The position numbers and the translations under genes are program-made. From Mustelus asterias (lineage: Eukaryota), in the NCBI RefSeq assembly GCF_964213995.1, contig NC_135808.1, positions 20,522,001 through 20,586,000 of the forward strand: a stretch of 64,000 bases of DNA, read 5' to 3'. Shown one piece after another: positions 6,225-59,422 of the stretch (within the stretch, counting starts at the first letter, position 1; every line of letters begins with the position of its first letter). The notes beneath the pieces were generated by a model. It saw nothing but the letters and a program-made list of their open reading frames with translations, had not been told where the DNA came from and ran no database searches.

Positions 6225-6267
6225 CCAAGAGAAGAATCAGGATACAAAGCTCAAGGTTGGAACTCAT
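6225..6267 (-). CDS. Gene A leader (signal peptide) exon, MSSNLELCILILLL
   Basis: ATG at 6267, hydrophobic core, and a phase-1 donor G|gtaagt that joins the V exon in frame (…LLL-AASA-EK). A tandem acceptor acagcag lies just upstream (6277-6273), implying a non-coding first exon. Confidence 0.8.
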
Positions 6268-12767: not shown

Positions 12768-12810
12768 ATGAATACAATCCACATCATGTGCATATTAGTT
12801 CCTCTCTCTG
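12768..12810 (+). CDS. Gene B leader (signal peptide) exon, MNTIHIMCILVPLS
   Basis: Acceptor tttcaacag ends at 12739, ATG at 12768, phase-1 donor G|gtgagt. Joins the V exons in frame as …VPLS-GIEA-EMFAV. Confidence 0.8.
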
Positions 12811-13204
12811 GTGAGTATAATCTTCATTTATTCCAGTCTTATATGCAGATCGGCCAAATACTTCCAGCTATCATTTCAAGATACCTTGTCAAGGAGGAGA
12901 CGTTGACGGATTGGCCAGCAATCGGGGATTTACTTTCAATTCATAAAATCTGTAATTGAAACGTGGCCTGGATAATGGTGACCATTAAACTATCATCGAT
13001 TGACATTAGTGAACTTTATAATTAGGATCGGTCTTACCTGGTCTGGCCTACAATCAGATCCGCATTAATGTGGCTGTCTCATATCTATCTACTGATATTG
13101 TTTGAATTGAAGGTTATTTAAGTGTGGGCAATAAATGTTGGTCTTTCCACCAACCCATTTGGTTAAACAAAACTCATCCTTTAGGCTAAATTCAAGCATT
13201 GGAT

Positions 13205-13580
13205 CTTTTTTTCCATTCATTCGTGGGACATGGGTGTTGCTGGCTGGCCAGCATTTATTGCCCATCTGAAATTGCCCTTGTTCAGAGGGCAGTTAAGAGT
13301 CAGCCACATTCCTGTAGCTCTGGAGTTACATGTAGGCCAGACCAGGTAAGGACGGCAGATGTCTTTCCCTAAAGGACATCAGTGAACCAGATGCATTTTT
13401 CTGACAATCGCCAATGGTTTCACAGTTATCAGTAAATGCTTAATTTCAGATATTTCTTTTTGATTGAATTCAAATTCCATCATCTGCCATTGTGGGATTG
13501 GAACCCAGACAGACTAGAACATTAGCTCAGTTTCTGGATTAATAATCTAGCGATAATACCACTAGGCCATCGCCTCCCCT
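13205..13580 (-). mobile_element. Deu-domain (SacSINE1-like) SINE. Related copies at ~6.4, 15.4, 16.6, 39.0, 46.3-47.0 and 50.5-51.2 kb.
   Basis: Repeated core ccatctggttcactaatgtcctttagggaaggaaatctgccgtccttacctggtctggcctacatgtgactccag, tRNA-like head, L2-like tail. The family name is from recollection, not a search. Confidence 0.65.
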
Positions 13581-15405: not shown

Positions 15406-15866
15406 CGGTTTCTAATCCCACCATCAGCTTTTGCACTAGGAATTCAATTAATAAAATCTGAAATATGAAGCTAGTCTCAGTAATGGTGACCAGGAGCCTA
15501 TGATGGACTGTTGCATAAACCCATCTGTCTCACTAATGTGATTTGGCGAAAGACATCTGGCATCCTTATGCGGCCTGGTCTGCATGTTAATCTTAATGTG
15601 GCTAACCCTTCACAGCCCTCTAAAATGTCCCAGGGCAATTAGGGACAAGCAACAAATGCGGGCATTGACAGTGATGCCCCATTGCCCATGAAAAAATTAA
15701 AAAAACATTGTCCAGTTTCCAGTTGTCCTTAATTCCTTGCAGTGGTTGCGAGTTGGTTCACTGAATCCAGTTGTACAATTAGGAAAATGTTGAGATATTT
15801 ACTTACTGGACTGACTGTCAAAGCCACAACCTCAAAACAAGTAACCTGACGTTTTCTCGTTTGCAG

Positions 15867-16208
15867 GAATTGAAGCTGAGATGTTCGCAGTTGTACAAAA
15901 GCTGCCCACTATTCTGGCTGAGGAAGGGCAGACAGTGCTCCTGCCCTGTGACTACACAGCCAACGTCTCCAAGGCGATAGGCTCTTATAGCTGGTACAGA
16001 GACACGAGGAATGGAACTGAAGTTTCCAACGGGACAGCTTCATACAGAGGGCGGATCTACAGGACCAGTGAGGATTTTGGGAGTGCCGGAGACGCCTCCA
16101 TTCTCATCAAGAATGCGACAGTGAAGGATTCTGGGGTGTACTACTGTGAAGTGGTGATGATGCAACTGGGTGCGGAATATGGTGCAGGAACACATCTCAT
16201 CGTGAAAA
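15867..16208 (+). CDS. NCR3: Gene B Ig V exon 1 (NCR3/NKp30-like VJ domain)
   Basis: 342-nt phase 1-1 exon, acceptor tttgcag, weak donor A|gtacgc. LPC..AIGS..WYRD..GTEVSNGT..RGR..DSGVYYC..LG..YGAGTHLIV follows the NKp30 pattern (LPC, AIGS, WFRD, EVRNGT, RGR, LGVGTGNGTRLVV). Confidence 0.88.
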
Positions 16209-17361
16209 GTACGCCATTCGGCTGCATGCATTGACACGAGACATTCGACCCTTTAGTGCTGTGGCCTTATCACCGACCGAACCTCGGCCAGAAGCATTTA
16301 GAAGAGCAGTCGAAAAGTCAAAGCATACTTGACTAGGAAGCAAATGCAGCTAAATTAGATTAAAATCAATATGTGCTTGATGGCCAGCGCAGATACGCTG
16401 GGCCAAATGGCCTCTTGCTGTGCTGTAATGCTCCACGAGGCGATCATTCTAATAGCTTTGATGCAGCAAATCCAGATTGTGAAATTCGAAAGTAGTTGAG
16501 GCCAATTTCAAGAAGAAATATAGATATAGCTCTTGGGACTAAAGGGATCAAGGGATATGGAGGCAAGGCGGAATCAGGATGTTGAATTTGATGATCAGCC
16601 ATGATCATGAAATGCGTTGGGAGGTAATGGTGGTATTATTGCCAGAAACTCAGCTAATGTTCTGGGGACGCGGGTTCAAATCCCACCATGGCAGCTGGTG
16701 AAATTTGAATTCAATAAAAAATATCTCGAATTAAGGATCTACAGATCACCATGGAACCATTGTTGATTGTCGGAAAAACCCATCTGGTTCACTAATAGCC
16801 TTTAGGGAAAGAAATCTCCTGTCCTTACTCGGTCTGGCCTACAGAGCCACAGCAATGTGGTTGACTGTCAACTGCCCACTGAAATGGCCGTGTAAGCTAC
16901 TCAGTTCAAGGGCAACTAGGGATGGGCAATCAATGCTGACTGGCCAGCAATGTCCCTGTTCCACAACTGAATAAAAATAAGAAATGGCGGAACAGGCTCG
17001 AAGATCCAAATGGCCCACTCCAGCTTCTATTTCCTTTGTTCCTAATTCTCAACTCCATTGAAGATAAATTTTAATCATTTAAAATATTCAAGTTCTGTCT
17101 CGGAGTAAATCTGACTTGCTGAGGATTCAAAACAAGAGGATAGCTTTACCACCAGTAATACCTTTGATACTCTCCACTTACCTGGATGAGTGTAGCTCCA
17201 ACAAGACTCAAAAAATTCTACCATCCAGGACAAAGCAACCCACTTAATTGGCACCCCATCCACCATCTTCAACATCCATTCATCCACCAATGATGCACAG
17301 TGGCAGCCATGTGTACCATCGACCAGATGCACTGCAGCAACTCATCAAAGCTCCTTGCAAA

Positions 17362-17715
17362 AGGGCGGCACGGTAGCACAGTGGTTAGCACTGCTGCTTC
17401 ACAGCTCCAGGGTCCCGGGTTCGATTCCCGGCTCGGGTCACTGTCTGTGTTGAGTTTGCACATTCTCCTCGTGTCTGTGTGGGTTTCCTCCGGGTGCTCC
17501 GGTTTCCTCCCACAGTCCAAAGATATGCGGGTTAGGTTGATTGGCCAGGTTAAAAAAAAAAATTGCCCCTTAGTGTCCTGAGATGCGTAGGTTAGAGGGA
17601 TTAGTGGGAAAATATGTGGGGGTAGGGCCTGGGTGGGACTGCGGTCGGTGCAGACTCGATGGGCCGAATGGCCTCCTTCTGCACTGTAGGGCTTCTGTGA
17701 AATTTCTTCTATGAA
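17362..17715 (+). mobile_element. HE1-type SINE inserted into an older L2-like LINE fragment (~17165-18020)
   Basis: Full SINE head to tail. The flanks match the uninterrupted copy of the LINE 3' end at ~19460-19890. Confidence 0.8.
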
Positions 17716-18181
17716 ACCCGTGACTTATCTTCTAACAGCTAGAAGGACAAGGGCAGCAGAGATGTGGGAACACCACCTACTGATGTTTCTCTGCCAGTCA
17801 CTCACCACCCTGAATGGAAAGATATCACTGTTCCTTCACTGTCACTTAGGGCAAAATCCCAGAACTCGCTCCCTCACAGCACTGCGGCTGTACATCCATC
17901 TAATTGACTCCAGAGGTTCAAAAAGGCAAGTCACCACCACCTTCTCTATGGCAATTAGGGATGGGCTAGAAAATGCTGGCCTGGCCAGCGAGGACCACAT
18001 TGCCCATGACAGAATTTAAAGATGCTACAATGTTTAGTTGCTCATAATGCCTTCCACTTTTTCCAAAGTGGTTCATTGAATATGGCTGTACAATTAGGGA
18101 GACGTTGAGATATTTACTCACTGGACTGACTGTCAAAGCCACAACCTCAAAACAAGTCACCTGAACTTTTCCTCTTTGCAG

Positions 18182-18523
18182 GAATTGAAGCTGAGATGTT
18201 CGCAGTTGTTCAAAGGTTGCCCTCTATTCTTGCTGAGGAAGGGCAGACAGTGCTCCTGCCCTGTGACTACACGACTGGCATCTCCAAGGCGATAAGCTCT
18301 TATAGCTGGTACAGAGATGTGAGGAATGGAACTAAAGTTACCAATGGGACAGCTTCATACAGAGGGCGGATCTACAGGACCAGTGAGCATTTTGGGAGTG
18401 CCGGAGACGCCTCCATTCTCATCAAGGATGTAAGAGTGAAGGATTCCGGAGTGTATTACTGTGAAGTGGCGATGATGCAGCTGGGTGTGGAATATGGTGC
18501 AGGAACACTTCTCATTGTGAGAA
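18182..18523 (+). CDS. NCR3: Gene B Ig V exon 2 (NCR3/NKp30-like VJ domain)
   Basis: 342-nt phase 1-1 exon, acceptor tttgcag, donor A|gtaagt. 17 amino-acid differences from V exon 1 over about 109 residues (hand count). Confidence 0.9.
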
Positions 18524-21488
18524 GTAAGTGATTCAGTTTTATGTGTTAAGATTTTGGCGAAGATCAAGAGTAGGATCAAAGCCGAAATGAGATACAAAGC
18601 CTGCTCTTGTTAGCTTGAATCTTCTATGCCTCTTTTGTTAGGACCATGAATTGGATCTGCACCTTAAGTGTTGAAAGCTGCAGGGTTATGGACTGTGTGC
18701 AGGAGGATGGGGTCAGAAAGGGCACCAGGGTGTCTTTGGGTAGGTAAGGACAGGATGGGCTGAAATGTCCCTTTCTGCACTCTATCATGATTCTATGGAT
18801 TCAATTTGAATTTGAATTGTTTTGTAGAGCAAGTGAGAGGACGGATTAAGGGTTAACCCTATCCACTCTGCTCATTGGATATGTAACTCTAAGAAAGAAT
18901 TTTTCTTTTAACTGTGGCTAATGGTCGGATGATCGAACCCTATAATGCACTGGTCTTATCTCCGACTGCATCCCATCCGAACTGATGTCAATGCCGTAAA
19001 TTCCGATTGTGTATTTACATCTCAGCCCCATTGAGGAGGCAATATAATCATTTAAAATAACTGGGGTATTGACTGGGACTAAATCTGAGTTGATGAGGTG
19101 CAATACAAGCAAGATAACTTTGAGCATAATGCTAAAAGCAAACTATTGCAGGTAGCGAGAATCTGAAATGTAATCCGAAAATGTCTGGAAATTTCAGTAG
19201 GTTTGGCAGCGTCTAGAGAAAGAAAGAGGTTAGTTTCGAGCTTTGACAAAGGGTCACCTGGACTCAAAACATCAGCTCTTTTCTCTCCTCACAGATGCTG
19301 TCAGACCTGCTGAGATTTTCCAGCATTTTTTCTTTTTGTTTCAGATTCCAGCATCCGCAGTACTTTGCTTTTATCCATTAGTTTGAGCCTGTCCGATTCT
19401 TCTTCAGGACTTTTCTTCATAAATCCCATCATCTCTTATACTATTTATACACTTCATTTGTTTGGATGAGTGCAGTTCGAACACTCAAGAAGCTCGACAC
19501 CATCCAGGACAAAGCAACCCTGCTTGACTGGCACTCCATCCACAAACATTCACTCCCTCCACCACCGACACACAGTGGCAGCCATGTGTACCATCTACAA
19601 GATGCACTGCAGCAACTCACCAAGGCTCCTTAGGCAGTCCCTTCCAACCTCACGACCTCTAGCCCCTTTCATAGCAGGACAATAGGTGCAGAGGAGCACC
19701 ACCACCTGGAGGTTCCCCTCCAATACACACACCATCCTGACTTGGAAATATCTAGGCCGTTCCTTCACTGTCGCTGGGTCAAAATCCTGGAACCTCCTCT
19801 CTAACAGCATTGTGGCTGTGCCTACACCCGCGGGACTGCAGAGGTAGAAGAAAGCGGCTCATCACCACTTTCCCAAGGCCAATTAGGGCTTGGACTGAAA
19901 AAAAACAATTCAAATCGGAATTGAATCCATAGAAATATAGAAATAATTCAGTACAGAAGGGAGCCAAGGAAAATAAATACTGACGGACCCAGTGATCCCC
20001 AGAACATAGCTTAAAGAAGGATAGAAATCATAGAAACCCCACAGTGCAGAAGGAGGCCATTCAGCTCATTGAGTCTGCACCGATAACAATCCCACCTAGG
20101 CCCTATCCTCATAACCCCACATATTTACCCTGCTAATCTCTCTAACCAACGCATCCCGGGACACTAAGGGGCAATTTATCATGGCCAATGCACCGAACCT
20201 GCGCATCTTTGGACTGTGGGAGGAAACCAGAGAACTTAGAGGAAACCCTCGCAGACACGGGGAGAACATGCAGACTCTGCACAGTCAGTGACCCAATCCG
20301 GGAATCGAATGCATGATCCATGGAGCTGAGAGGTAGCTGTGCACTGCTGTCTCACAATGCCAGGGATCCGAGTTCAATTCCTGGCTTGGGTCTCTGTCTG
20401 TGCGGAGTTTGCACTAGGGGATTTTCACAATAACTTCATTGCAGTGTTACTGTAAGCCTACCTGTGACAGTAATAAATAAACTTTAAAACTTTAATAAAT
20501 AAACTAAAAAATAACAGATCTGTGACTGTCTGGTTTTCGCTCGAAAGCAAAAGGTCGGGGAAACGTCTTTAATTATGGGAGATGTAGAACAGAATATTCT
20601 ACTATTGTTAAAGCTCAAAGCCGTAGGCCAGAAATATAAGCCATTTACCAATCGATCCAACAGGGAATTCAGCAAGAAAGCACTTTACTCAGAGTGGGGG
20701 GAGATTGTGGATCTCGCTAACATATGAACTTGTTGAGGCAATTAGTACAGATCCAATTAAAGGGAACCTTAATATTCCGAAGATGTTAGAAGCATAGAAC
20801 CGACAAAATGCCTAGAGTGCTGAAGAGGTCATTCCGCCCACTGAATCTGCACCGACTCTCAGAAAGGTCACCCCGCCATGAGATATTGGTTGAGCTTGAA
20901 AAACGCCACCTATTGACCAGTGCTTGCAATTAATGTAATTCAGATCCGTTTAATTTAGCCCAATGGACGGGAAATACTGAAGATCGAATGGAATATGAAA
21001 CTTGCGGCCAAATAATACAGCCTGTTGTCTTCAATGCGGATATAGAACTCGTGTTGCATCTAATCCCAACCATTTTCACAAAAGTCAAGTGCGTTGACTT
21101 GGCTGCCCACTTTCTAAGTGCTAGTTGATTATTGCCCATTTTGTGTTCGATGAGGCGGTGGTGGGGTGGCATTGTCCCTGCACCAGTCTAACATACTGGG
21201 GATCCCCATTCGACTCACCACGGTTCTTGAAAATCTGGAATCTGTCCCTTGTCGGAAAGAGCCACCTGCTTCGCCAGGGAAGGAAATCTGCCATCCTGCC
21301 CGACAAGTGACTCCAAACCCACATCAATGTGGTTGACCCTGAAATGCCCTCGGAAATGGCAATTAGGGATGGACAATAATGGCCCAGCCAATGATGCCCA
21401 CATCCCGTGAATCAAAAAATAGCATAAACAATGAGAAATAAATACGAGGGGTGATAAGGTAACCGACTTTTGATTTGTTCTCCTTTAG

Positions 21489-21575
21489 GTTCAATGATAA
21501 TCACAGTTCAGCGTATTGTCAGAGGGCTGGTTATTGTGACAGTGATCATTGCTATTTCCTTCTGGAGAATGAGGG
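21489..21575 (+). CDS. Gene B transmembrane exon (S)SMIITVQRIVRGLVIVTVIIAISFWRMR
   Basis: Acceptor ttctcctttag, donor G|gtgaga, phase 1-1. Hydrophobic helix with two Arg, followed by a WRMR stop-transfer. Confidence 0.8.
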
Positions 21576-21864
21576 GTGAGATTATTCAATATGTTAGCAG
21601 TAAATATATCAATGTTTAGAATTTGCTAATATTTTCTCTGAATTTTGCGAAAATGGAAGTGGCAGATGAGCATTGGGTAGTATATCAGCATATTGTCCTA
21701 TATTCCTTCATCACTAAGACAGAGAAGAAATTGTCTAATGAAAATAAGTGGATCAACATCTACAATAAAATAAGAGTAAATGTTTTAGACTAACTCTTCA
21801 AACATAATTCAGGTGACATTTCAGCATGGAATCGCCTCACCAGTAAATGAAGCTGTCCATATCC

Positions 21865-23780: not shown

Positions 23781-23924
23781 TTGCCCACATGCAGACTATG
23801 GAAAAATGAACGATCAAGGTGGAGCGACAGACCCCGGGACACACGTGTCCAGGCGGAGGTTGACCCGGACAGCTTCAAAGTTGTTGATGTTGAGTTTGAG
23901 TGTTCTGAAGAATTCAGAACCTGA
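23781..23924 (+). CDS. Gene B terminal coding exon LPTCRLWKNERSRWSDRPRDTRVQAEVDPDSFKVVDVEFECSEEFRT*
   Basis: Acceptor tttgtttgtgcag, phase 0, 47 open codons, TGA at 23922-23924. Non-repetitive sequence. Confidence 0.6.
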   Translation: MPTCRLWKNERSRWSDRPRDTRVQAEVDPDSFKVVDVEFECSEEFRT

Positions 23925-34209: not shown

Positions 34210-37055
34210 CTACACTATTCCAAAATCATCCATATGTTTATCCAATAACCACTTGAACGCTCTCAACGTTGACGAGTCCACCACTGCTGCAGGCAGGGCA
34301 TTCCACGCCCTTACTCCTCTCTGAGTAAAGAACCTACCTCTAACATCTGTCCTATATCTCTCACCCCTCAATTTAAAGCTATGTCCCCTCGTGCTAGCCA
34401 ACACCATCCGAGGAAAAAGGCTCTCACTATCCACCCTATCTAATCCTCTGATCATCTTGTATGCCTCTTTTAAGTCACCTCTTAACCTTCTTCTCTCTAA
34501 CGAAAACAACCTCAAGCCGCTCAGCCTTTCCTCATACGATTTTCCCACCATACCAGGCAACATCCTGGTAAATCTCCTCTGCACCCTTTCCAACACTTCC
34601 ACATCTTTCCTATAATACGGCGACCAGAACTGTACGCAATACTCCAAATGCGGCCGCACCAGAGTTTTGTACAGTTGCAGCATGACCTCCTGGCTCCGAA
34701 ACTCAATCCCTCTACCAATAAAAGCTAACACACCTTTCGCCTTCTTAACAACCCTATCAACCTGGGTGCCAACTTTCAGGGATCTATGCACATGGACACC
34801 CAGATCCCTCTGTTCATCCACACTACCAAGTATCTTATCATTAGCCCAGTACTCTGTATTCCTGTTACTCCTTCCAAAGTGAATCACCTCACACTTTTCC
34901 GCATTAAACTCCATTTGCCACCTCTCAGCCCAGCTCTGCAGCTTATCTATGTCCCTCTGTAACCTGCCACTTCCCTCCGCACTGTTTACAACTCCACCGA
35001 CTTTAGTGTTATCCGCAAATTTATTAATCCATCCTTCCACACCCTCATCAAGTCATTAATAAAAATGACAAACAGCAGTGGCCCCAAAACAGATCCTTGC
35101 AGTACACCACTAGTAACTGAACTCCAGGATGAATATTTCCCATCAACCACCACCCTTTGTTTTCTCACAGCTAGCCAATTCCTTATCCAAACCACTAAAT
35201 CACCCTCAATCCCATGTGTCCGTATTTTCTGCAAAAGCTTACCATGGGGAACCTTATCAAACGCTTTGCTGAAATCCATATACACCACATCAACTGCTTT
35301 ACCCTCATCCACCTCTTTGGTCACCTTCTCAAAGAACTCAATAAGGTTTGTGAGGCACGACCTACCCTTCACAAAACCGTGCTGACTATCCCTAATCAAA
35401 TTATTCCTTTCTATGTGATTATAAATCCTATCTCTTATAATCCTTTCCAATAATTTGTCCACAACAGAAGTAAGGCTCACCGGTCTATAATTACCAGGGT
35501 TGTCCCTACTCCCCTTCTTGAACAAGGGGACAACATTTGCTATCCTCCAGTCTTCTGGCACTGTTCCTGTAGACAATGACGACACAAAGATCAAAGCCAA
35601 AGGCTCTGCAATCTCCTCTCTAGCCTCCCAGAGAATCCTAGGATAAATCCCATCCGGACCAGGGGACTTATCTATTTTTACCCTTTCCAGAATTGCTAAC
35701 ACCTCCTTCTTATGAACATCAATTCCATCCAGTCCAACAGCCTGCATCTCAGTACTCCCCTCGACAACACTGTCCCTCTCTATTGTGAATACCGACGAAA
35801 AATATTCATTCAGTGCCTCTCCTATCTCTTCAGACTCCACGCACAACTTCCCACTCCTGTCCTTGACTGACCCTAATCTTACCCTAGTCATTCTTTTACT
35901 CCTGACATACCTATAGAAAGCTTTAGGGTTTTTCTTGATCCTACCCGCCAAAGACTTCTCATGTCCCCTCCTGGCTCTTCTTAACTCTTTCTTTAGATCC
36001 TTCCTGGCTAACTTGTAACTCTCAAGCGCCCTAACTGAGCCTTCACGTCTCATCTTAACATAAGTCTCCTTCTTCCTCTTCACAAGAGATTCAACCTCCT
36101 TAGTAGACCACGGTTCCCTCACACGTCTGCTTCCTCCCTTCCTGACAGGTACATATTTATCAAGGACGCGTAGTAGCTGTTCCTTGAACAAGTTCCACAT
36201 TACAATTGTGCCCATCCCCTGCAGTTTCCTTCCCCAACCTATGCCAGCGAAATCTCGCCTAATCGCATCATAATTTCCTTTCCCCCAGCTATAACTCTTG
36301 CCCTTTGGTATATACCTATCCTTTTCCATTGCTAAAGTAAACGTAATCGAATTGTGGTCACTGTCACCAAAGTGCTCACCTACCTCCAAATCTAACACCT
36401 GGTCTGGTTCATTACCCAGTACCAAATCCAATGTGGCCTCGCCTCTTGTTGGTCTATCTACATACTGCGTCAGGAAGCCTTCCTGCACACACTGGACAAA
36501 AACCGACCCCTCTAAAGTACTCGAACTATAGCTTTTCCAGTCAATATTTGTAAAGTTAAAGTCCCCCAGTACAACTACCCTGTTACTTTCGCTCCTATCC
36601 AGAATCATCTTTGCAATCTTTTCCTCTACATCTCTGGAACTTTTCGGAGGTCTATAAAAAACTCCCAACAGGGTGACCTCTCCTTTCCTGTTTCTAACCT
36701 CAGCCCAAACTACCTCAGTCGACGAGTCCTCATCAAACGTCCTTTCTGCCACCGTAATACTGTCCTTTACTAACAATGCCACACCTCCCCCTCTTTTACC
36801 ACCTTCCCTGCACTTACTGAAACATCTAAACCCCGGAACCTGCAACAACCATTCCTGTCCCTGCTCTATCCATGTCTCCGAGATGGCCACAACATCGAAA
36901 TCCGAGGTACCAACCCATGCTGCAAGCTCACCCACCTTATTCCGGATGCTCCTGGCGTTGAAGTATACACACTTCAAACCGCCTTCCTGCCGGCCAGTAC
37001 ACTCCTGCGACTCTGAAACCTCATCCATGACCTCACTACTCGTAACCTCCTGCAC
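34210..37055 (-). pseudogene. CR1 ORF2 (endonuclease and reverse transcriptase) with a 1-bp frameshift near 35050 and FADD changed to FADN
   Basis: NARSI, ISETW, GDFN, SDH (APE motifs); QGSVLGP; FINDL/(D)EG frameshift; KFADNTK. Confidence 0.9.
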
Positions 37056-37093
37056 ACCGGAGCTACAATTCAGGTACCCACCCCCCTGCTGAA

Positions 37094-38247
37094 TTAGTTT
37101 AAACCCTCCCGAAGAGCATTAGCAAATTTCCCCCCCAAGATATTGGTACCCCTCTGGTTCAAGTGCAGACCATCCTGTTTGTAGAGGTCCCACCTACCCC
37201 AGAAAGAGCCCCAATTGTCCAGGTATCTGAATCCCTCCCTCCTGCACCATCTCTGTAACCACGTGTTCAACTGCTCTCTCTCCCTATTCCTCTCCTCACT
37301 ATCACGTGGCACGGGTAACAAACCAGAGATAACAACTTTGTTTGTTCTAGCCCTAAGCTTCCACCCTAACTCTCTGAATTTCTGCCTTACATCCCCATCC
37401 CTTTTCCTACCTATGTCTTGAGTGCCTATGTGAACCACAACTTGGGGCTGGTCTCCCTCCCCCTTAAGGATATCGAAAACACGATCCGAGACATCGTGGA
37501 CTCTGGCTCCTGGGAGGCAACACACCAACCGCGAGTCTCTCTCGTTCCCGTAGAATCTCCTGTCCGTCCCTTTAACTATGGAGTCCCCAATGACTAATCC
37601 TCTACTCCTTTCCCCCCTTCCCTTCTGAGCCACAAGGACAGACTCTGAGCCAGCGACCTGTACACCATGGCTTACCCCTGCTAAGACCCCCCCCAGCAGC
37701 ATCCAAAAGTGTAGTATCCCCAATTTCTACGACATTTTTTGTTTCTCCCCTCCACTTGGATGGCTCCCTGTACCTTGGTGCTGTGGTCAGTTTGCTCATC
37801 CTCCCTTTCCCTCCCCTTCTGAGCTGCCGGGCCGGACTCTGCGCCGGAAGCACGGCCACTGTTGCTTCCCCCAGATAGGCTGCTCCCCCCAACAGTACTT
37901 AAACAGGAGTACTTAATTTTAAGGGGCACAGCCACTGGGGTACTCTCTAGTACCTGACCTTTCCCCTTCCCCTTCCTAACCGTGACCCACTTGTCTGTCT
38001 CTCGTGGCCCCGGTGTGACCACCTGCCTGTAACTCCTATCTATCACCTCCTCATTCTCCCTAACCAGACGAAGGTCATTGAGCAGCAGTTCCAGTTCCCC
38101 AACGCGGTCCCTTAAGAGCTGCAGCTCGACGCACCGGGCGCAGATATGGACGTCCAGGAGGCTAGTGACTCCAGGACCTCCCACATCAGACACTGAGAAC
38201 AACAAACTGGCCTCACAATCATAATTCTCCCTTTCTTCCAATGACAC
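37094..38247 (-). pseudogene. CR1 ORF1 (gag-like with SGNH esterase), frameshifted
   Basis: GDS, LPGA, HIGT and DGLHL esterase blocks. The Cys-rich N-terminus is split across frames. Confidence 0.8.
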
Positions 38248-43943: not shown

Positions 43944-44027
43944 TTAACATTGAAAATTGGTTTCCAGATCTTCATTTGCACATCCATCGACCTCTGCAGC
44001 TGACGGCTCAGAATCTGCTCCATTTCC
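43944..44027 (-). CDS. Gene C terminal coding exon GNGADSEPSAAEVDGCANEDLETNFQC*
   Basis: Acceptor ttaatctccgcag (44029-44028), phase 0, TAA ending at 43944. Confidence 0.6.
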   Translation of the reverse strand, partial: GNGADSEPSAAEVDGCANEDLETNFQC

Positions 44028-45567
44028 CTGCGGAGATTAAGTAGATAAAGCCATGTAGTACACTCAAGTCAGGTAAACAGTCCAGCATGAATACTGGTAA
44101 AAAGTCCTCACTCAAATGCCTTTCTGTAACTTCCAAGGTCAACACATCAAGAAGCTTATTTGAATTGCAAACTGGTCAAATATTATTTCTATGTTTTAAA
44201 CACAGTGAGACAGCCTGATCTGCCGAGTAACCTATGGAGAGCCCTATTTTACATGACTGCACTTTCTTGAAGCTTCCCTCTCAGTAGTTTAGGATAGTCC
44301 AACAGACATCTCAGGGAGCCACAGGGTGCAAATTGCGGAATTGTTTGCTATGTTTACCCGCGTCAAATTTAGTTGGTGTGGTGATATTAATTAGGGAAAG
44401 TTTGAATCATAGAATCCTACAGTGCAGGAGTACTTTGGCCAATCGAGCCTGAAGCGACAACAATCCCACCCAGGCTCTTACGCCATAAACCCATATATTT
44501 ACCCTACTGATCGCCCGGGCACTGCTCTGACACTAAGGGGCAATTTTGCATGGCCAATCCACCTAACCTGCACATGTTTGGAGTGTGGGAGGAAACTGGA
44601 GCGCCCGGAGGAAATCCACGCAGACACAGGGAGAACGTGTAGACTCCACACAGTCACCCAAGGTGGGAATTCATCCCGGGTTCTTGGCGCTGAGAGGCAG
44701 CAATGCTAACCCCTGTGCCACCATGCATATATTTTTTTAAACTACATTTTGATGAGACTCTATGAATGCTGTCTTGTGACGCAATGCTCGGGTTCCTCCA
44801 TCTAGACCAGAAGTTCTGCGTTCAAGTTCCCCCCTCAGGAATTGATGGTCATGGTTGATTAGCAGCCAGTAAATCCTTCCAATAAGCCTGATGGCAAGCA
44901 GTAAAGAGCAGGAGGGTTTACTGGTCAGCAGTACAGCAGAAGGTAACAGTAAACCACTATGGTGCATTGCCAAACATCATCGAAGAGCAATCCAAAGAAA
45001 GTCCATGTGTAATGACTTTAATCAGGCAATTAAGGTTGGCCTGTTAGAATATGAACTCCCTGATTAAGGGTCAGATTGATGGGCCAATCAGCGAGTTGCA
45101 TGCTTTGTACATAACCAGGCGTGTCAGTTCCTCTGGGACTCCGAGTGCAAACTCCACACAGACAGTGACCCAAGCCGGGAATCGAATGCAGGTCCTTTGC
45201 ACTGTGAGACAGCAGTGCTAACCACTGTGCCGCCCCATGTTAAATGTTGCAATTGTACTTGCCTCTCTCACCTCCTCACATGGCCAGCATGCGATTGATG
45301 GTGAGCTCTCTTGACTTGACTTCATTCAGCTTTTCACCTTAATTCACTTTTAGCAATATCTCTCAGTTTCCTGTACAATAATTTAATTCACTCCCAAATA
45401 AATCCGGTCGTACCCTTTACCAGAATTCCCAGCTACTGCTAACTGCTCTGTGTAGAAACACCGACTGTCAATTAGATGCGAATCTTTAACTTTGATTAGT
45501 TTGCATTAATTAACTTAAATATCAGTTTGGTTTATATAAAGGCAGGGCACCGCTATCGCTCCCTTAC

Positions 45568-45608
45568 CTGATTCACTGAGATGTCTTCAGGAAGCGGACC
45601 ACGTTTCG
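45568..45608 (-). CDS. Gene C cytoplasmic exon (A)KRGPLPEDISVNQ
   Basis: Acceptor attcacag, donor CAG|gtaagg. 41 nt, phase 1-0. Confidence 0.68.
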
Positions 45609-47904
45609 CTGTGAATTGAATCAAAGGGAAATGCATGTCAATGGCATCATATCTCAATCCTGCAAAGGACGTCTGAGAATATTGGGCGGCACAGTCGTTA
45701 GCACCGCTGCCTCACAGCGCCAGAGACGGGGGTTCGATTCCGGCCTCGGGTCACTGTCCATCTGGAGTTTGCACATTCTCTTCGTGTCTGCCTGGGTTTC
45801 CTCCGGGTGCTCCGGTTTCCTCCCACAGTCCCAAGATGTGCGGGTGAGGTAGATTGGCCATGATAAATTGACCCTAGTATCAGGGATTCGCAGGGTAAAT
45901 ATGTGGGGTTACAGGAATAGGGCCTGGGTGGGTTGGGGCCGGTGCAGACTCGATGGGCCGAATGGCCTCCTTCTGTAATGTAGGCATTCTATTATTTGTT
46001 TCATACACTTATTGCTTTAACCTAGCCTGAAAATAAAGTGTGCATTTTAAATAATATGCCAGGAGTTTCTCTCCTGGTCATTTACTGTTAACTTGTTCAT
46101 CGAAGTTTGCCTGTCGTGTTGCAGGGAAACAGATGGTGAGTGGGATTAATTGGATGGATCTTTCAAAGAACCCTCACTGGCATAGTGTGCTGAATGAGCT
46201 CCTTCTGTGCAGTGTCCCTCTCTGATAGTAGCAAGATCATGAGAGCAGAAGTGTCTCCGTTTCCCCTCCAAGATAGGTGTGACTATTTAGGCATATGTTG
46301 CCGGAATAGCAATCCAGTTTAATGCTCCAGGGACATGGGTTCAAATCCCAATTTGGAAACTGATGTCATTTAAATTCAATTAATTAACTCTGAACATCTA
46401 ACATCGGAGAATAATTACTGTGCAGAAGAGACTATTCGGCCTATCGAGTCTGCACTGACTCTGACAGAGCATCCCACCCAGGCCATATCCCTGAAAACCC
46501 ATGTATTAATGTTGCTAACCCCCCTAATCTGCATATCTTGGAACAGAATGAGGCAATTTAGCGTAGCTAATGTACCTACCCGACTCATTTTTGGACTGTG
46601 GGAGAAAACCGGAGCACCTGGTGGAAAAAACTGGAGCACCCGGAGGAAACCCATGGTTTCGGGGAGAATATGCAAACTCCACACACACACAGTCACCCAA
46701 AGCCGGGATTGAACCCGAGTCCCTGGTTCTGTGAGGCAGCAGTGTTAGCCACAATGCTAATCTCAGTTATGGTGACAGTGGAACAATTGTCAGCTGTAAT
46801 ACCAAACCACATGGCTCACTAATGGGGATGGGAATCTGGTGTTCTTACATGGTTTGGCCAGTACGTGAATTCAGTTCCACATCAGTAATGTGGTTGACTC
46901 TTAACTGCTCTCTGAAATGGCCAAACAAGCCATTCAATTACATGGGCAACGAAGGATGGTCAACAAATGCTGGTCTTGCCAGTGACACACACTTCCCATG
47001 AAAGAATAAATAATACACCTGGGTTATTTTCACACTGGCTGGATCAAAATCTTGATATTACTCCTCTACCACCACTTTGGGACAACCATCGTCATATAAG
47101 CTACCATTATCTTCTTACCCTCACAGAGTGACAGGGTTTGATAATACCCTGTTAATGTTATATGCATCCCGAAAATGAATTTACCAAACACAAAAAGGCA
47201 TGATATAGAATTTGCTCATTTTCTACCGGTGACGAGAAATTGCGAGGCTTCATCAAGCCCATTGTTACTTCACTGAAACTGACACCATCAGGACACTCTG
47301 CATATACAGAATAAGGCAGAAATCCAGGCATCACTGCCAGTGATTGTACACTTCTCCAGATGATGTGTTGCTCAGGATACTAAGGCTGTAATCAATTGGA
47401 AATCACTGAACTGGCAAGAACTTTCATTCCAGCCGAAAATCTCTCAGAAATGCACTCCTTGTTCAATGGAGCATGGTTAGGCTTCAACTTGCTGCTAAAC
47501 TATTTGCCAATCTGATAGAACCACAAATTTCTCCATAATAAAAAGCTACATTTCTAAAACATATTTTTAAAACTGTGTTGATCTTAATTTCATTTTTTTG
47601 ACCACAATCCAATCATTAATTATTTACTTTGCTATCAGAATTATTAACCTAAAGATGGCGGGGGGGGATTCAGACATTTTACATTCCAGGATTGCCGTCT
47701 GTGAGAATACTTCAGCGTGATTGGTTGCTGACATCACTGTTAATGTATGCCTGGAGATCGCTTTGACTTAAGCACCATATGCAAAGTGATATGGGGACAC
47801 CATAGAGATCGTTACATCTGGGAAGGTTACTTCGAAGGCAGCAAAATCAGAGCTAATAACTCATATGCTAATGTCATGCAGCACAAGCTGATCCAAAGGC
47901 AAGG

Positions 47905-48110
47905 AGTCTCACAACACCAGGTTAAAGTCCAACAGGTTTATTTGGAATCATGAGCTTTCAGAGCACTGTTCCTTCATCAGGTAACTCACCTGATCAAGGA
48001 GCAGCGCTCCGAAAGCTCATGATTCCAAATGAACCTTTTGGACTTGAACCTGGTGTTGTGAGACTTCTTACTATGCCCACCCCAGTCCAACGCCAATATC
48101 TTCACATCAT
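47905..48110. mobile_element. Palindromic Penelope-derived element (inverted terminal-repeat pair); a similar one lies at ~54505-54662
   Basis: gtctcacaacaccaggttaaagtccaac…gtt-like arm mirrored by …ttggacttgaacctggtgttgtgagac, giving arms of about 78 bp. Confidence 0.75.
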
Positions 48111-48534
48111 GATCCAAAGGTGTCTTTAGGCAAACCTCCGATGAGCATTCCGTGGTGAACATTTTTATTTCAGCCTCCGGTTATTTTAAGCCTCGGAGTT
48201 AAATTGGGAACTAGAATCAAATTACAGGCCGCTTTCTGCCTCTAAACATGTGGGGAATAATGTGGGGAAACATGTCTGTGGGAAGGAAGAAGTCAATGTC
48301 TAATTTCATTGCGTTCATTAAAACTGCACGTCAACCGGTGTGTATAATAGGTGAAACTGATCGGATTGCCCAGGCTGAAATTCTGTACCAACAACAGGTT
48401 TTGAATACTTATGATCATTCAGGAGAGCAAAGTCATATTCAATCAGTGAATGTTTGCCTCAATTCAGGAGGAAAGTCAAGCATTGTAAACCACTCCGGTT
48501 ACCCAAAGAACCATCTTGTTTATGTGTTATTTAC

Positions 48535-48569
48535 CTGTTACATTAAGTTCGTCGTATCCATAATCATGC
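48535..48569 (-). CDS. Gene C cytoplasmic exon (E)HDYGYDELNVT
   Basis: Acceptor ttttttctttggcag, donor CAG|gtaaat. 35 nt; only the phase 2-1 frame is open; contains YxxL. Confidence 0.7.
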
Positions 48570-48884
48570 CTGCCAAAGAAAAAAGGGGACATTTTATGTG
48601 CTTTGAGTTAAAATGCCTATTAAGAAATACTTCTAATGTCATAGGTTCCAACAAGTTTAATATGAACAAATGAACTTTATAAACTCAATTCAAACTCAAC
48701 CTTTTCTAATAAGCTATTATTACAAATTCTGGTATGAGGCTATTAAGTATTATGAGAACAAACTCAATCATACTGTTTGAATCTGCATGTGGATAATATA
48801 CATTCCTGCATTCGTAGCCAAAGCTGACCTTATCAGTATCCCAGTGGAGGATACAAGGCTACTTTGGCGTGTATGGGACATTGC

Positions 48885-50165
48885 TGAGGCCACACCAGGA
48901 ACATTGCGTGCAGTTTTGGTGTCCTTATCTGAGGAAGGATGTCCTTGCTCTAGAGGGAGTGCAGTGAAGGTTCACCAAGCTGATTCCTGGGATGGCAGGT
49001 CTGTCATATGAGGAGAGACTATGTCGGTTAGGATTATATTCATTGGAGTTTAGAAAAGTGGGAGGGGATGCCATAGAAAATTATAAAATCCTAACAGGAT
49101 TAGACATGGTAGATTCAGAAAGAATGATCCCGATAGTGGGGAATTCCAGAACTAGGTGTCATAATTTGAGATTAAGGAGTAAATCTTTTCGGACTGAGGT
49201 GAGGAGAAATTTCTTCACAAGGAGAATGGTGAATCTGCGGAATTCACTACCACAGAATGTAGTTGAGGCCAAAATGTGATGTGATTTGAAGAAGAAATTA
49301 GATATAGCCCTTGGGGCTAAAGGGATTATGGGGAGAAGGCGGGATCAGGGTATTGAATTTGAGGACCAGCCATGATCAGGCTCGAAGGGCCGAATGGCCT
49401 ACTCCTAGTTTCTATGATGTTTCTTCCTGTCTATCTATGCCCCTCATAATTTTATACATCTCAATCATGTCCCCCTTGAGTCTCCTCTGCTTCAAGGAAA
49501 TAACCCCAGTCTATCCAATCTTTCTTCATAACTAAAACACTCCAACCCAGGCAACATCTTGGTAAATCTCCTTTGCACCCTTTCAAGTGCTATCACATTC
49601 CTTCGATAATGTGCATTCCAGAACTGCACGCAATACTCTCGCTGTGACTAACACTTTATGCAGCTCCAGCATAACCTCCCTGTTCTTAAACAGTATGCCT
49701 TGACTAATAAAGGCAAATATACCATTTACCTTCTTAACTACTTTATCCATCTGTCCTGCTACCTTAAGGGACCATGTACATGCACACCAATGTCCTCAGT
49801 GCTTCCCAGGTTCCTGTTGTTCATCGTGTATTCTCTTATCTTGTTTGTCCTCACCTCACACTTATCCAGCTTGAATTCCATTTGCCGCTACTCAAGCCAT
49901 CTGACCAGCCCATCTATATCCTCCTATAATCTAAGGCTATCCTCCTCACTATTTACCATTCTTGTCAATTTCTATCCCCATGCCATATCATCCCCAACCT
50001 TACAGATCAACCCTCCTTTATATAAACCACAACAAGCAAGGGCCTCAACACTGATCCCTGCGGGACCCCATTGGACATAATCTTCCAGTACAAAAAACAC
50101 CTCGTGACCATCACCTTCTGCTTCCTGCCACTCAATCCATTCTAGATCCAATTTGCCAAATTCGA
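48885..50165. mobile_element. Two abutting CR1 fragments in opposite orientation (+ ~48885-49420, - ~49430-50165)
   Basis: GLSYEERLCRLGLYSLE and RNFFTRRMVNL on +; decayed RT on -. Confidence 0.8.
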
Positions 50166-51249
50166 TGAATTCCTGAAGCGAGAGGGGACACAGCAATAAC
50201 TGAAGTTGTTGAGCCAGTTATGTTGCATTGACTTCAAGGGGGGTCGGGGTTGGGGGGAGGGGGGGGGGGGGCGGTGGGGAACGGTGAGGTTAAAGGGCTA
50301 ATTGGATTCCACTTGTTTCTTCTGAATTGGTCCAATTGACTCTTCTACCAGGACAGATGAACAGGACGAAGATGAGGACATCTGGCTGGTGTGTTTTGTC
50401 ACAACCAATGACGGGTCGAAATCATTGCCAGATGAATGTCATCACACTTTTCTTTATTTTTGCTTCTGACAAAAGTCAGACTGCTAGACATGAGCAATCT
50501 GAGCCGGCAATGGCCTAGTGGTATTATCGCTAGATTATTAATCCAGAAACTGAGCTAATATTCTGCGGACCCAGGTTCGAATCCCACCACAGCAGATGGT
50601 GGATCTGAATTCAAGTTTTAAAAAAAATCAATCTGTAATTAAGAATCTACGGATGACGATGAAACCATTGTTGAATGTCGGAGAAATCCTTCTGGTTCAC
50701 TAAAGACCTTTAGGGATGGAAATCTGACATCCTTACTCAGTCTGGCCGGTTTGTTTTCACTGGAATGATGGAGGTTGAGGGGCGACCTGATAGACGTCTA
50801 CAAGATTATGAGGGGCATGGATAGTCAGAAGCTTTTCCCAGAGTGGAAAAGTCAATTACTAGGGGGCACAGGTTTAAGGTGCGAGGGGCAAGGCTTAAAG
50901 GAGATGTACGAGGCAAGTTTTTTTTAATACTGAGTGTGGTGGGTGCCTGTAACTCGCTGCCAGGAGAGCTGGTGGAAGCAGGTATGATACTGACTTTTAA
51001 GGGGCATCTTGTCAAATACATGTTTTTAGTTCAGTCGGGCAGCATGGTCGGTGCAGGCTTGGAGGGCTGAAGGGCCTGTTCCTGTGCTGTAATTTTCTTG
51101 TTGTTTGTTTGTTCTTACATGTGACTCAAGATCCACAGCAATGTGGTTGACTCGCAACCGCCCTCCAAGGGCAACTAGGGATGGGCAATGAATGCTGGCC
51201 AGCCAGTGACACCCATGTCCCACGAATGAATTTTAAAAAATAAACTAAC

Positions 51250-51276
51250 TCCTGTACATCATTTCCTCTCCACAAC
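51250..51276 (-). CDS. Gene C cytoplasmic micro-exon (E)LWRGNDVQ
   Basis: Acceptor taatttctgtgacag, donor GA|gttagt. 27 nt, phase 2-2, so it is symmetric and skippable. Confidence 0.5.
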
Positions 51277-51531
51277 CTGTCACAGAAATTAAAAATGCCG
51301 CACGTGCTTGGATAACCGCCATTACAGAAAACGCGGTATTTTGACAGAAAGTGCGTTTCAAGCAGATTTTCTCAAATTGTACATAAAAGGAGCTTAACTC
51401 CTTAAATGTATTTGTAAGTGTGTTGCAGTTCTGGGGAATAAAGATTTCTTTCTTGCCTTTGGGAAGACATGAGGAACTGAAAAAAGGCAAATTCGAAAAT
51501 GTGACAGGTTGGGTAAAGAGAATTGACTCAC

Positions 51532-51629
51532 TCTGAATCGTTACGTCCCACAATCACATTCAGAGAAGATACTTGTTGTAAAAGATCCATCTTTATCGTG
51601 GCGTATTGTACAGGCTCTGGTGCAGTAGT
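51532..51629 (-). CDS. Gene C cytoplasmic exon TTAPEPVQYATIKMDLLQQVSSLNVIVGRNDS, containing an ITIM consensus
   Basis: Acceptor ctttctgtttatacag, donor GA|gtgagt. 98 nt, phase 0-2. VQYATI fits (I/V/L/S)xYxx(L/V/I). Confidence 0.7.
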
Positions 51630-52656
51630 CTGTATAAACAGAAAGATTCGCTTAGTCGAGATTGGCCAGCCAAGATGCATGCTTCAGGAACCCCGTTGGG
51701 GAGGGTTTTTGATGAGTTGATATTTGTGCACGAGATCCGTCATTTTAAATTGAGATTAAGAATGTGAGACTTGAATAAAACAAATAAGTAGAATGCGCAA
51801 TCAAACTCTAAAGTATTGCTGAACTCACACAAGATCGGGCTACGTTTTTGCAGAGACGCTGAAGGATATGAGGAGTCTGATCTGTTATAAATAAAATGTC
51901 CTTCTTGCGCTTTGTACCCGTTAACAACATCTCATAGTCATAAAAGCACGTATGTTGAAATGTTTCATTCCTATCAATCAGCATAGTTAATTATTAAAAT
52001 GTCTATCTCTAAAATATACCCATCTACCATCGAATCCCTACAGTGCAGAAGGAGGCCATTTAGCCCATCGAGCCTGCACCGACCACAATCCCACCCAGAC
52101 CCTATCCCCGAAACATCACACATTTACCCTGCTAATCTCCCAATTTCGCATGGCCAATCAACCTAATCCGAACATCTTTGGACTGTGGAAGAAAACCAGA
52201 GCACCCGGAGGAAACCCACACAGACACGGGGAGAATGTGCAAACTCCACACAGACAGTGACCCGAGGCTGGAATTGAACCCAGGTCCCTGACATTGTGAG
52301 GTAGCAGTGCTAGCCACTGTGACACCGTGCCACCCCAAATTGTGCTCTGTTCATAAATTCATAAGGTATAGGAGCAGAATTAGGCCATTCAGCCCATTGA
52401 GTCTACACCGCCATTCGATCATGGCTGATATGCTCCTCATCCCCACTTTCCTGCCTTCTCCCCATCAACCCATTACCAATTAAAAATCTGTCTAACTCCT
52501 TAAATTTACTCACTATCCCAGGATCCACCGCACTTTGGGGTAGCGAATTCCAGATTCACAACCCTTTGGTAGAACTAGTTTCTCCTCAACTCTGAGCGTT
52601 TTGCCTCAAATTGCATTGAAACTCGATATCATAATTCACTTTATGTTGTTGCTTAC

Positions 52657-52691
52657 CTCAGTCTGTGATACGAGCGGACAACTTTGGTCAT
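52657..52691 (-). CDS. Gene C cytoplasmic exon (D)DQSCPLVSQTE
   Basis: Acceptor ttttgaacttgtag, donor GAG|gtaagc. 35 nt, phase 1-0. Confidence 0.65.
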
Positions 52692-55600
52692 CTACAAGTT
52701 CAAAATGTAACGGATAGGAAAATGTCAGTGGAGTTTAATACAATAAGGTGTAGCACAATATTCAGAGCGATAGATTGATGTTTGATGTCAGATAATTCGA
52801 TAGATAGAAAAACATTTATTTGAGCTACATTTCAGCCGTTTAATGACAGAACAGAGGAGTGGAATGGACTGTTTTTGTCTCTGTTTCTATAATGTCTAAT
52901 CGTGCCTCTCAGTGTCTCCTATATTATACTAATAGGGTTAATAAACTTGAATGAATTATTAGTAAGAATGATAAAACAACCCGGTTCCAGAAAAAAATCA
53001 GATAAGTTACCAATTTGTCAAAACTGTATATTTGTGTACGTGGGTGTGTTTCATTCAATGGCTCCAGACAGGGTGCTGACATAACTAACCCCTTGCTATT
53101 TTATCAAGAACTCATGCAGTTCATCTGGACAAGCAGACATGGCTGGGGAATTTGGCAATGTGGTGCTCCCCCGTCACTGCAGCAAAGCACAATTATCTAA
53201 TGAACTTTCAAAGTAGGACTCCGCATTGTTTCACTTTGGAAACAAGAGCATCAACAGTCGAGTCGAAGGGACACAAGACAGACAGACACCTATTTCTACA
53301 AAGTCCGACTGAGATTCACTAGAAACCAGCAATTGCTGGATTACATTTTGAAAGCTTAAGGGTGAACATCATAGAATCCCTGCAGTGCAGAAGGAGGCCA
53401 TCTGGCCCATCGAGTGGGCAGTGACTCGCACAGCATCATACCCAGGCCCTATCCCCATAACCCCTCATACTTACCTGGCTACTCACCCTAACCTATGCAT
53501 CTTAGGACACTAAGGGGCAATTTACCATGGCCAGTCATCAACCTAACTTGTTCATCTTTGGATTGTGGGAAACCGGAGTACCTGGAGGAAGCCCACGCAG
53601 ACATGAGGACACAGACAGTGACCCGAGGCTGGAATTGAACCCGGGTCCCTGGCACTGTGAGGCAGCAGTGCTAACCACTGTGAAATCAAATAGCAAGTGC
53701 AGCAGTCTAATACACTCATAATTAGCGTTCACCGGTGATCAAGCTACATCTATTAAATTGTCACAAGCCTCTGGAGGCAGCATTCACCAGAAACTACACA
53801 TAAAGACAGATAAGATTTTTATAACTCTGGAACAACTGTATGCTCGGGATAAATAAGGATGCTTCTGTCATTTGCATCCAGTGTCAGAAGTAATATGGGC
53901 CTAATGTAGATCTGCAGCAAACATCTGCAGGTGGCACGGTGCCACAATGTTTAGCACTGCTGCCTCACAGCGTCAGGGATCCACGTTTGATTCCCAGCTT
54001 GGGTTACTGTCTGTGTGGAGTTTGCACATTCTCCCCGTGTCTGCTTGGGTTTCCTCCGGGTGCTCCGGTTTCCCCCCACAGTCCAACGATGTGTGGGTTA
54101 GGTTGATTGGCCAATGCTAAATTGACCGGAGTCGGGGATTAGCAGGGCAAATGAGTGTTATGGGAATAGGGCCTGGGTGGGATTATGGTCAGTACAGACT
54201 CAATGGGCCGAATGGCCTCCTTTTGTACGATAGGGATTCTATGATCGTCATTGTAACAGTGCCATTTCTCAGAATTGATATTTCCTCAGAGGAAAAGTGG
54301 GGTGGGGGGGGGGGGGGGGGGGGGCTTATAAAAATGTTGCCAGGGCTAAATAAAGTGTAGCTTTGAGGAGAATTGGATAGGTTTGCGTTATTTTCCTTGG
54401 AACAAAGAAGGCTGAGGAGTGATTTGATAGAGGTGTATAAAGTTATGAGGGGTAGAGACAGAGTGGACAGAATATTTTTTTTCCCTTGGCAAAGAATTCT
54501 AGAGTAAGAAGTTTAACAACACCAGGTTACAGTCCAACGGGTTTATTTGGTAACAAAAGCAAAAGCGTGTGGCTTTTGCTCCCAAATAAACCTGTTGGAC
54601 TTTAACCTGGTGTGGTTAAACTTCTTACTGTGTTTACCCCAGTCCAATGCCGGCATTTCCACATAAAGAATTCTAGAACCAGGGGACATGGATTCAAGAT
54701 AAGTGGCAGTAGGTGCAGAGGGGACATGAGGAAGAACTTTTTATGCAGAGGGTGGTGGGTGTCTGGAATTTGCTGCCCAAGTTGGGGGTGGAGGCAGAGA
54801 CCCTAAAGACTTTGAAAAAGTACATGGATCTGCACCTTAAGTGCTGTAAGATACAGGATTATGGGCAGGGTGCGGGATGGTGGGATTGGAAAGAGAATCA
54901 GAGTGTCTGCAGGCTGGCATGGACAAAATGGGCCGAATGGTCTCCTTCTGTACTGTAACTGTTCTATGTTTCTATGGAAATTGCCGATGTCAAAGTTGTT
55001 ACTGAGTAATTTCCTGCTGTGGGCCAGACACATTAGAGATTGAATTGAGGGCCCTTCAAACTACTTTCACATTTAGACTGGGCAATGGGGAGAATCTCGC
55101 CTCATCTCCCTGCGCCTGACTTAAATCAAGACAGCAGATACAAGTGGCATCATAAGTTCCCTTCTATTCTCTCTCAGGACAGCTACACTTTACTGTTCAC
55201 TGTAACTCAATGAGTGACTTTCTCTAATCGCCGTGTTTGAACCTTTTGGCGCCCAGCCTCACTTCAGCCCAAAATCCAGACTGGGGAGAGTGCTGCACTG
55301 CGCATGGTTGGAGATGTCATCTTTCAGCTGACCATGATTGTTGTAAAAGAACTCTTGGACCTATTCCGAAACAGCAACATAGAAACAAGAAACATAGAAA
55401 ATAAGAAGAGGCCCTTCGAGCCTGCTCCACAATTCATTTTGATCATGGCCGATGATGAAATTCAAGATCCTGATCCTGCTTTCCCCCGGTATTCTTTGAT
55501 CCCTTCAGCTTCAAGAGCTGTATCTAATTTTTTCTCATTGTTAGTGTAGTGATGAGTATCCCTGCTTGTCACACGGTCCACCGGGGTTCAATTTCTTTAT

Positions 55601-56883: not shown

Positions 56884-56951
56884 CAATCAGGTTATCTGTC
56901 GAACTGCTGAATGTCTTCAGATTGTCAGGAGGGGGAGGAGGAAATAAAGTC
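56884..56951 (-). CDS. Gene C cytoplasmic exon (R)TLFPPPPPDNLKTFSSSTDNLI
   Basis: Acceptor tgtttataacacag, non-canonical donor TG|gcaagt. 68 nt, phase 2-1, which is exactly what the flanking exons require. Confidence 0.58.
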
Positions 56952-58952: not shown

Positions 58953-59255
58953 AGGCAGCACATTGGCACAGCGGTTAGCACTGCTGACTCACAGCACCAG
59001 GGAATTGGGTTCAATTCCCGGCTTGGGTCACTGTCTGTGCAGAGTCTGCACGTTCTCCCCATGTCCGCGTTTCCTCGGGTACTCCAGTTTCCTCCCACAA
59101 TCCGAAAGACGTGCTGATTAGGTGCATTGGCCATGCTAAATTCTCCCTCAGTTTACCCGAACAGGAGTGCGGCGACTCGGGGATTTTCACAGTAACTTCA
59201 TTGCAGTGTTGATGTAAGCCCACTTGTGACACCAGTAAATAAATAAACTTTTAAA
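58953..59255 (+). mobile_element. HE1-like SINE variant with an alternative 3' tail
   Basis: Same head and V core, but the tail is …ggggattttcacagtaacttcattgcagtgtt.atgtaagcc.acttgtgac..aataaa. Also at ~8860-9215, 9315-9590, 38598-38888 and 42495-42677. Confidence 0.75.
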
Positions 59256-59422
59256 CTATACAGCACGGAAACAGGGAATTATCCCTCTCAACCTTTCCTA
59301 ACTATGTACTTGTCCAAATTTAAATGTTGTAATTGTACTGCCATATTTAATGGCAGTACACTGAATTTACAGTGATAGCAGCAAGCTAACTGTAAATGTA
59401 ACAGGTTTCTGGCTAAATGTAC

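Follow-up and report, generated by a model that had tools for sequence, protein, structure and literature searches.

The 64,000-nt stretch of Mustelus asterias DNA analysed here (the window, C8:20522001-20586000; genome searched, 3.68 Gb) contains gene B and parts of two further genes, A and C. On the forward strand, gene B consists of a leader exon (L), two tandem V exons (V1 and V2), a transmembrane (TM) exon and a last exon (Table 1). As an earlier sequence-only reading of this DNA had claimed, V1 and V2 are both 342 nt long and phase 1-1, which translation confirms, and both begin with the same GIEAE residues, reading (G)IEAEMF in each case; both are also stop-free and bounded by AG and GT. 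The roughly 110 nt of upstream intron said to be common to them matches at 97 of 112 columns. The exons differ at 32 of 342 nucleotides and at 17 of 113 amino acids (exons 85% identical). The single leader and single TM exon of that reading likewise hold: exon scans gave 12768 and 21489, plus a TM-like match at 19295 that was rejected as repeat sequence, the same text recurring near 6900. Specifically, between 12000 and 21488 the only leader-like exon picked up was 12768, and no other copy of the gene B leader or TM occurs in the 264 kb examined. The joins L-V1-TM, L-V2-TM and L-V1-V2-TM are all in frame as stated, and so is L-TM, which that reading had missed, along with the inequality of the two donors and the presence of a last exon from 23781. 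The anatomy of gene B described from the letters is thus real.

Table 1. Features of gene B and its two neighbours, in window positions
Feature	Position	Strand	Description
Leader exon, coding part	12768..12810	+	MNTIHIMCILVPLS + Gly first base; donor CTG/GTGAGT (slash, exon end)
Intron end ahead of V1, duplicated	15755..15866	+	Branch region, pyrimidine tract, AG; 97/112 identical to 18069-18181
V1 exon	15867..16208	+	Single-exon VJ-type V-set domain; four N-glycan sequons
V1 donor, weak	16206..16214	+	AAA/GTACGC; read-through gives STPFGCMH-stop
Intron end ahead of V2, duplicated	18069..18181	+	Pairs with 15755-15866
V2 exon	18182..18523	+	Single-exon VJ-type V-set domain; two N-glycan sequons; donor GAA/GTAAGT
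TM exon	21489..21575	+	SMIITVQRIVRGLVIVTVIIAISFWRMR; Arg in or at membrane segment; 62% to white shark TM
Last exon	23781..23924	+	Phase 1 splice gives VAHMQTMEK-stop
Gene A	Leader 6225-6267; V 2168-2506 and 1-213 across window start	-	Leader-V-V-TM
Gene C	43950-59587 and L019-L021	-	Leader-V-V-TM

In the last exon, the reading frame resembling the tail of the white shark protein (RLWKNERS..., 44% over 34 amino acids) is offset by one base from the frame reached by splicing, and the tail is accordingly predicted to end after VAHMQTMEK; the offset reflects either a small frameshift or the use of another acceptor. Read-through of the TM donor (21576-21620) would add GEIIQYVSSKYINV before a stop, and the SKYINV within it fits the ITIM pattern, a likeness that is probably due to chance.

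Both V domains are assigned to Pfam V-set. Human NKp30 chains take the top four PDB places (E about 1e-15, the next match reaching 5e-10), ahead of VNAR, Ig and TCR. The predicted product has a type I membrane layout with a charged TM segment, QRIVRGLVIVTVIIAISFW, and a tail of about 12 amino acids. The positions that contact B7-H6 are partly conserved, IGS being retained in V1 and ISS in V2. In each V exon the V region and a J-like G strand lie together (YYC...YGAGT), and a motif scan found no heptamer-12/23-nonamer signal in about 1 kb spanning either exon. The 18 related V exons found in the genome are all located on C8. Matches to MHC class I exons, 140 in number, fall on C8 without exception, and the one closest to gene B (20.54 Mb) is at 21.62 Mb, about 1.1 Mb away; the corresponding class II exon search gave no match and was uninformative. 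These features fit an NCR3/NKp30-family gene. NCR3/NKp30 binds B7-H6 and signals via CD3-zeta or FcR-gamma, the TM Arg of human NKp30 coupling to the adaptor. By inference from human NKp30, the TM Arg together with the short predicted tail suggests that gene B is an activating member.

Like human NKp30, its best PDB match, gene B has a charged TM and a short tail, but the human protein has one V domain. With the shark NCR3 family it shares a single-exon, non-rearranging VJ domain, the leader-V-TM layout and a place in an MHC-linked cluster, and it differs in having two V exons. Kinlein et al. 2021 is said to be the key paper on shark NCR3. The view that gene B carries germline VJ domains without rearrangement was correct, yet this is the known nature of NCR3: PMC12227049 describes NCR3 as an MHC-linked VJ gene that does not rearrange, and it refers to eight members in the nurse shark (MT914154-914161). 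The portion of PMC12272517 on human NKp30 describes isoforms A-C that differ in the tail around a constant V domain. In a literature outside which the key shark NCR3 papers fall, no account of V-exon splicing in shark NCR3 was found, a weak negative; gene B is a further member of a known family, and multi-V or alternatively spliced shark NCR3 genes may have been described there already.

The tandem duplication of a V exon inside gene B is real. The duplicated unit comprises about 112 nt of upstream intron (87% identical), the exon and about 13 nt beyond the donor. A weaker likeness (70%), perhaps 120 nt more, extends back to 15634/17950, partly as a repeat tail, and over the next 200 nt downstream the identity falls to 59%, against 56% for random pairs. 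The upstream intron element has two matches only in the genome, 15755-15866 and 18069-18181, in a search that skips common words. Look-alike exons standing in tandem within a large diploid assembly could in principle be two haplotypes set one after the other, but here such an artefact is extremely improbable: the copies are 9% divergent with unrelated flanks, the white shark orthologue is doubled as well, and in sample S1 (runs X1 and X2) V1-type contigs extend into the V1 flank and V2-type contigs into the V2 flank. The S1 contigs come from one study, possibly the source study. V1 in S1 differs from the window at seven listed places, including donor position +4 (GTATGC) and D69H, and none of the V1-type pieces shown from this sample contains a stop codon. 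The runs listed for V2 (four runs, three samples, one study) include no RNA; over 15700-16340, the V1 stretch only, contigs from these four runs cross the exon borders without joints, so the runs behave as DNA and are silent on splicing.

Because every V combination is in frame, alternative splicing is possible, and to this extent the description of V1 and V2 as interchangeable cassettes stands; their interchangeable or mutually exclusive use gained no positive support. Dscam1 and FGFR IIIb/IIIc are mutually exclusive Ig exons. Like these systems and the human mutually exclusive clusters treated in part of PMC5740500, gene B has homologous exons in tandem that match in length and phase, a criterion for such clusters; unlike them, each of its exons encodes an entire domain, of a kind predicted to fold in tandem, and the devices looked for to enforce exclusion were not found. 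The exclusion devices set out in that part of PMC5740500 are a U2/U12 mismatch, a donor less than 50 nt from the branch point, a frameshift when both exons are included, and RNA pairings that compete; proof is said there to consist of junction reads that bridge each exon with none joining both. In gene B the steric, U12 and frameshift devices are absent: intron 2 is 1973 nt long and GT-AG, V1 and V2 join in frame, and 342 is divisible by 3. Intron 2 contains 122 AGs throughout, with a longest AG-free gap of 65 nt. In human data, the same part of PMC5740500 credits the three classic devices with no more than about 70% of mutually exclusive clusters (0.79%, 9% and 60%), so their absence lowers the odds of exclusivity without settling it.

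Regulated use of the two exons as alternative or mutually exclusive cassettes, giving L-V1-TM or L-V2-TM receptors with differing ligand preference, would agree not only with the equal length, phase and start of V1 and V2 and their in-frame joins, but also with a 64-nt upstream element that is nearly identical between the copies. In a docking-site test covering this upstream element, as distinct from short or downstream selectors, its pairing with introns 1-3 was no better than that of shuffled sequences in six of six tests (6-20 of 20 shuffles as good). Each V exon is also flanked by inverted repeats, V1 by 13204-13544 with 16634-16982 (73%) and V2 by 17388-17707 with 20023-20342 (78%); however, 39% of windows of 342 nt drawn at random from the 264 kb are so flanked, which puts both pairs at background, and there is no single partner for which one pair would compete with the other. 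As to ligand preference, V1 and V2 were compared at contact positions obtained by alignment to human NKp30 and from Table II of PMC3135353, which places Gly51 and Glu111 of the human protein in contact with B7-H6. V2 differs from V1 at the equivalents of both residues (G38S and V96A, respectively) and beside Phe85, and the two domains may therefore differ in binding; yet only 2 of the 11 contact positions from that table differ, where 1.65 are expected (p 0.52), so they are not enriched for change and give no sign of selection for a binding difference. Regulated cassettes are, on this evidence, distinctly unlikely.

The V1 and V2 acceptors and donors are not equivalent in one respect. The V1 donor differs from that of V2 at 4 of 13 nucleotides, lacking the -1 G, the +4 A and the +6 T, and by simple U1-pairing energy, a crude score, it is the weakest among the 18 family V exons, with a U1 duplex of -3.0 kcal/mol against -6.4 for V2 and -5.7 to -11.5 for the other 16; for L009 and L010 the score was taken at a stronger GT 12 nt on, the nearer equivalent GT (-1.7) being weaker than that of V1. 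The V1 acceptor is intact. A 342-nt exon between introns of 2-3 kb relies on its own splice sites. Given the weak donor, skipping of V1 is plausible, and the exon skipped, if any, would be V1, yielding L-V2-TM alongside L-V1-V2-TM and no symmetric swap; the L-V1-TM form that regulated cassettes call for would require skipping the exon with the better donor.

The weak donor is consistent just as well with a V1 that is mostly skipped or decaying. If V1 were a decaying duplicate, its eroded donor would lead to near-constant skipping and L-V2-TM would be the sole working product. The dependence of such an exon on its own sites would favour this outcome, as would the GTATGC donor in sample S1, by which the site varies, but the coding sequence and the intact acceptor speak against it. 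Between V1 and V2, dN is 0.077 and dS 0.184 (dN/dS 0.42), with 13 changes per 79.5 synonymous sites versus 19 per 259.5 non-synonymous sites (Fisher p 0.026), signs of purifying selection on the pair. When the changes are polarised on lamniform sharks, V1 bears 5-9 of the 17 amino-acid changes, and its branch is shorter than that of V2 (0.067 vs 0.11). In a neutral simulation, the probability of no stop and at most 9 changes is 0.027 at d=0.07 and 0.0025 at d=0.09, rising to 0.20 at d=0.05. V1 does not look long dead on these comparisons, although it may have been silenced recently. KIR2D pseudo-exon 3, a membrane-distal Ig exon, looks intact yet is left out by splicing; a silent V1 would resemble it, but V1 still bears signs of protein-level selection. 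We regard decay of V1 as unlikely, though deserving of real weight.

Protein-level selection on V1 alongside a weak donor would also be accounted for if the chief role of V1 were to end the transcript of a secreted decoy with a single domain (L-V1-STPFGCMH-stop), produced by donor read-through and intronic polyadenylation, V2 feeding the membrane receptor. Read-through of the V1 donor reaches the stop after 8 codons, and poly(A) hexamers lie at 16359, 16713 and 16970. Such a stop shortly after an unused donor is expected by chance, though, the hexamers sit in a repeat-rich, AT-rich intron and were counted without a control, and the white shark model joins V1 to V2; a soluble V1 is accordingly very unlikely.

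The RefSeq models of white shark LOC121291272 (XP_041068276, P0001) and basking shark LOC144695539 (XP_078422539, P0002) are orthologues of gene B, with 69-75% V identity and a similar TM and last exon. The white shark gene has a single V-V-TM model, with the junction LTVR-R-IDAEKF and V domains identical at 109 of 113 positions (96%), and the basking shark gene is modelled with one V. In a tree of 23 domains from the closer hits, V1 and V2 of gene B form one clade (98/92) and the white shark pair another, separate one (95/89), and position-by-position orthology between the two genes is rejected (AU p about 1e-4). The V exon was therefore either doubled twice or kept alike by conversion; the white shark pair, grouping with itself, differs from that of gene B through independent duplication or concerted evolution. 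Clustering of V pairs within species in the two sharks could also mean an old pair kept alike, as regulated cassettes would allow. Tandem inclusion of both domains is structurally possible: given an aligned set of 26 sequences, the fold predicted for the white shark V-V chain has pLDDT above 90 in both V domains and about 80 in the linker coil, a single-sequence fold of P0001 having been uninformative (pLDDT 38).

The internal V domains of relatives' multi-V models often start in the same manner, with junctions such as RRIDAEKF, RGSNAEKF, RGIGAEKF and RGIDSEKF. Copying of a first V exon carries the final signal-peptide residues along with it, hence the GIEAE start of an internal V exon; by this comparison, the shared start does not imply cassettes. 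V doubling appears common in the gene models of the NCR3/NKp30 family. Among 155 proteins fetched, 57 are NCR3-like and 21 of these have at least two V domains, as do 8 of a further 15. The proportion of 21 in 57 runs high, since summed scoring prefers hits with several domains and one gene contributes three isoforms; these V-V proteins are all predicted models, and annotation is prone to chaining exons that share a frame. At the multi-V loci examined that have several RefSeq isoforms (horn shark X1-X3, sawshark X1-X2, frog X1-X3) every V is kept in 3 of 3 cases and the TM or tail varies, so that a V-swapped isoform, as cassettes would predict, is found in none of the three, with the reservation that clustering at 90% could conceal V-skipped isoforms. 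An inhibitory-type white shark paralogue, LOC121291130 X4 (P0163), also has a doubled V, the copies 93% alike and GTELTVR repeated at the junction.

Both neighbours of gene B have two V exons. The TM of gene A lies about 2 kb before the window (C8 about 20519900-20520030), and its V domains are 78% alike. Its doubled V stems from a larger duplication of at least 780 nt at 91%, both of its V donors are strong (CAG/GTAAGC), and a sister gene with a single V is situated 15-22 kb ahead of the window. The leader of gene C lies 19 kb past the window end, and its tail exons reach back into the window. Its V domains are 52% alike and each groups by position with a domain of a catshark two-V protein (supports 81/93 and 90/52), so the gene C pair looks old. 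Gene C has an uncharged TM and tail exons with tyrosine motifs, matching catshark P0005; it carries the closest paralogous V of gene B (59%) and points towards gene B. Genes B and C are likely an activating/inhibitory pair.

With somewhat better than even confidence, we propose that gene B encodes a two-V receptor with leaky skipping of V1. The V exon of this shark NCR3/NKp30-family gene was duplicated in tandem within the gene, and an L-V1-V2-TM-short tail mRNA, both V exons joined, would give rise to a two-V-domain receptor of activating type in which the leftover signal-peptide residues R-IEAE may act as a linker. Leaky skipping, with V1 as the exon dropped, would also yield the ancestral one-V form, and the TM Arg would couple to an adaptor as in human NKp30. 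The gain would lie in reach or avidity, with no switch between two binding sites. Gene B is then best read as a further instance of gain and loss of domains within the NKp30 cluster of sharks, which is useful to annotators of shark NK receptors; the doubling of the V exon of the same gene in two shark lineages, independently or concertedly, hints at selection for reach or avidity. A broader proposal is that regulated splicing, by choosing among germline VJ exons (V1, V2, both or soluble V1), diversifies ligand recognition in the shark NKp30 family, the tandem pairs that recur or stay alike in several cluster genes and in the white shark forming a RAG-free, splice-based repertoire. We consider it rather doubtful. 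The NCR3 family has long been discussed as a relative of the pre-RAG receptor, its members being the closest non-rearranging relatives of antigen receptors, and selection of germline VJ exons by splicing, if true, would be a non-rearranging route to variable recognition.

The window is packed with SINEs and fragments of LINEs, and on its reverse strand (34213-37118) there are long LINE frames of 710 and 280 codons that appear endonuclease- and reverse-transcriptase-like by eye. Further along C8, a large MHC class I exon array occupies 21.6-24.7 Mb, with many equal-scoring copies at regular spacing (for example 22.62, 23.03, 23.45 and 24.65 Mb), reflecting either recent segmental duplication or redundant assembly.
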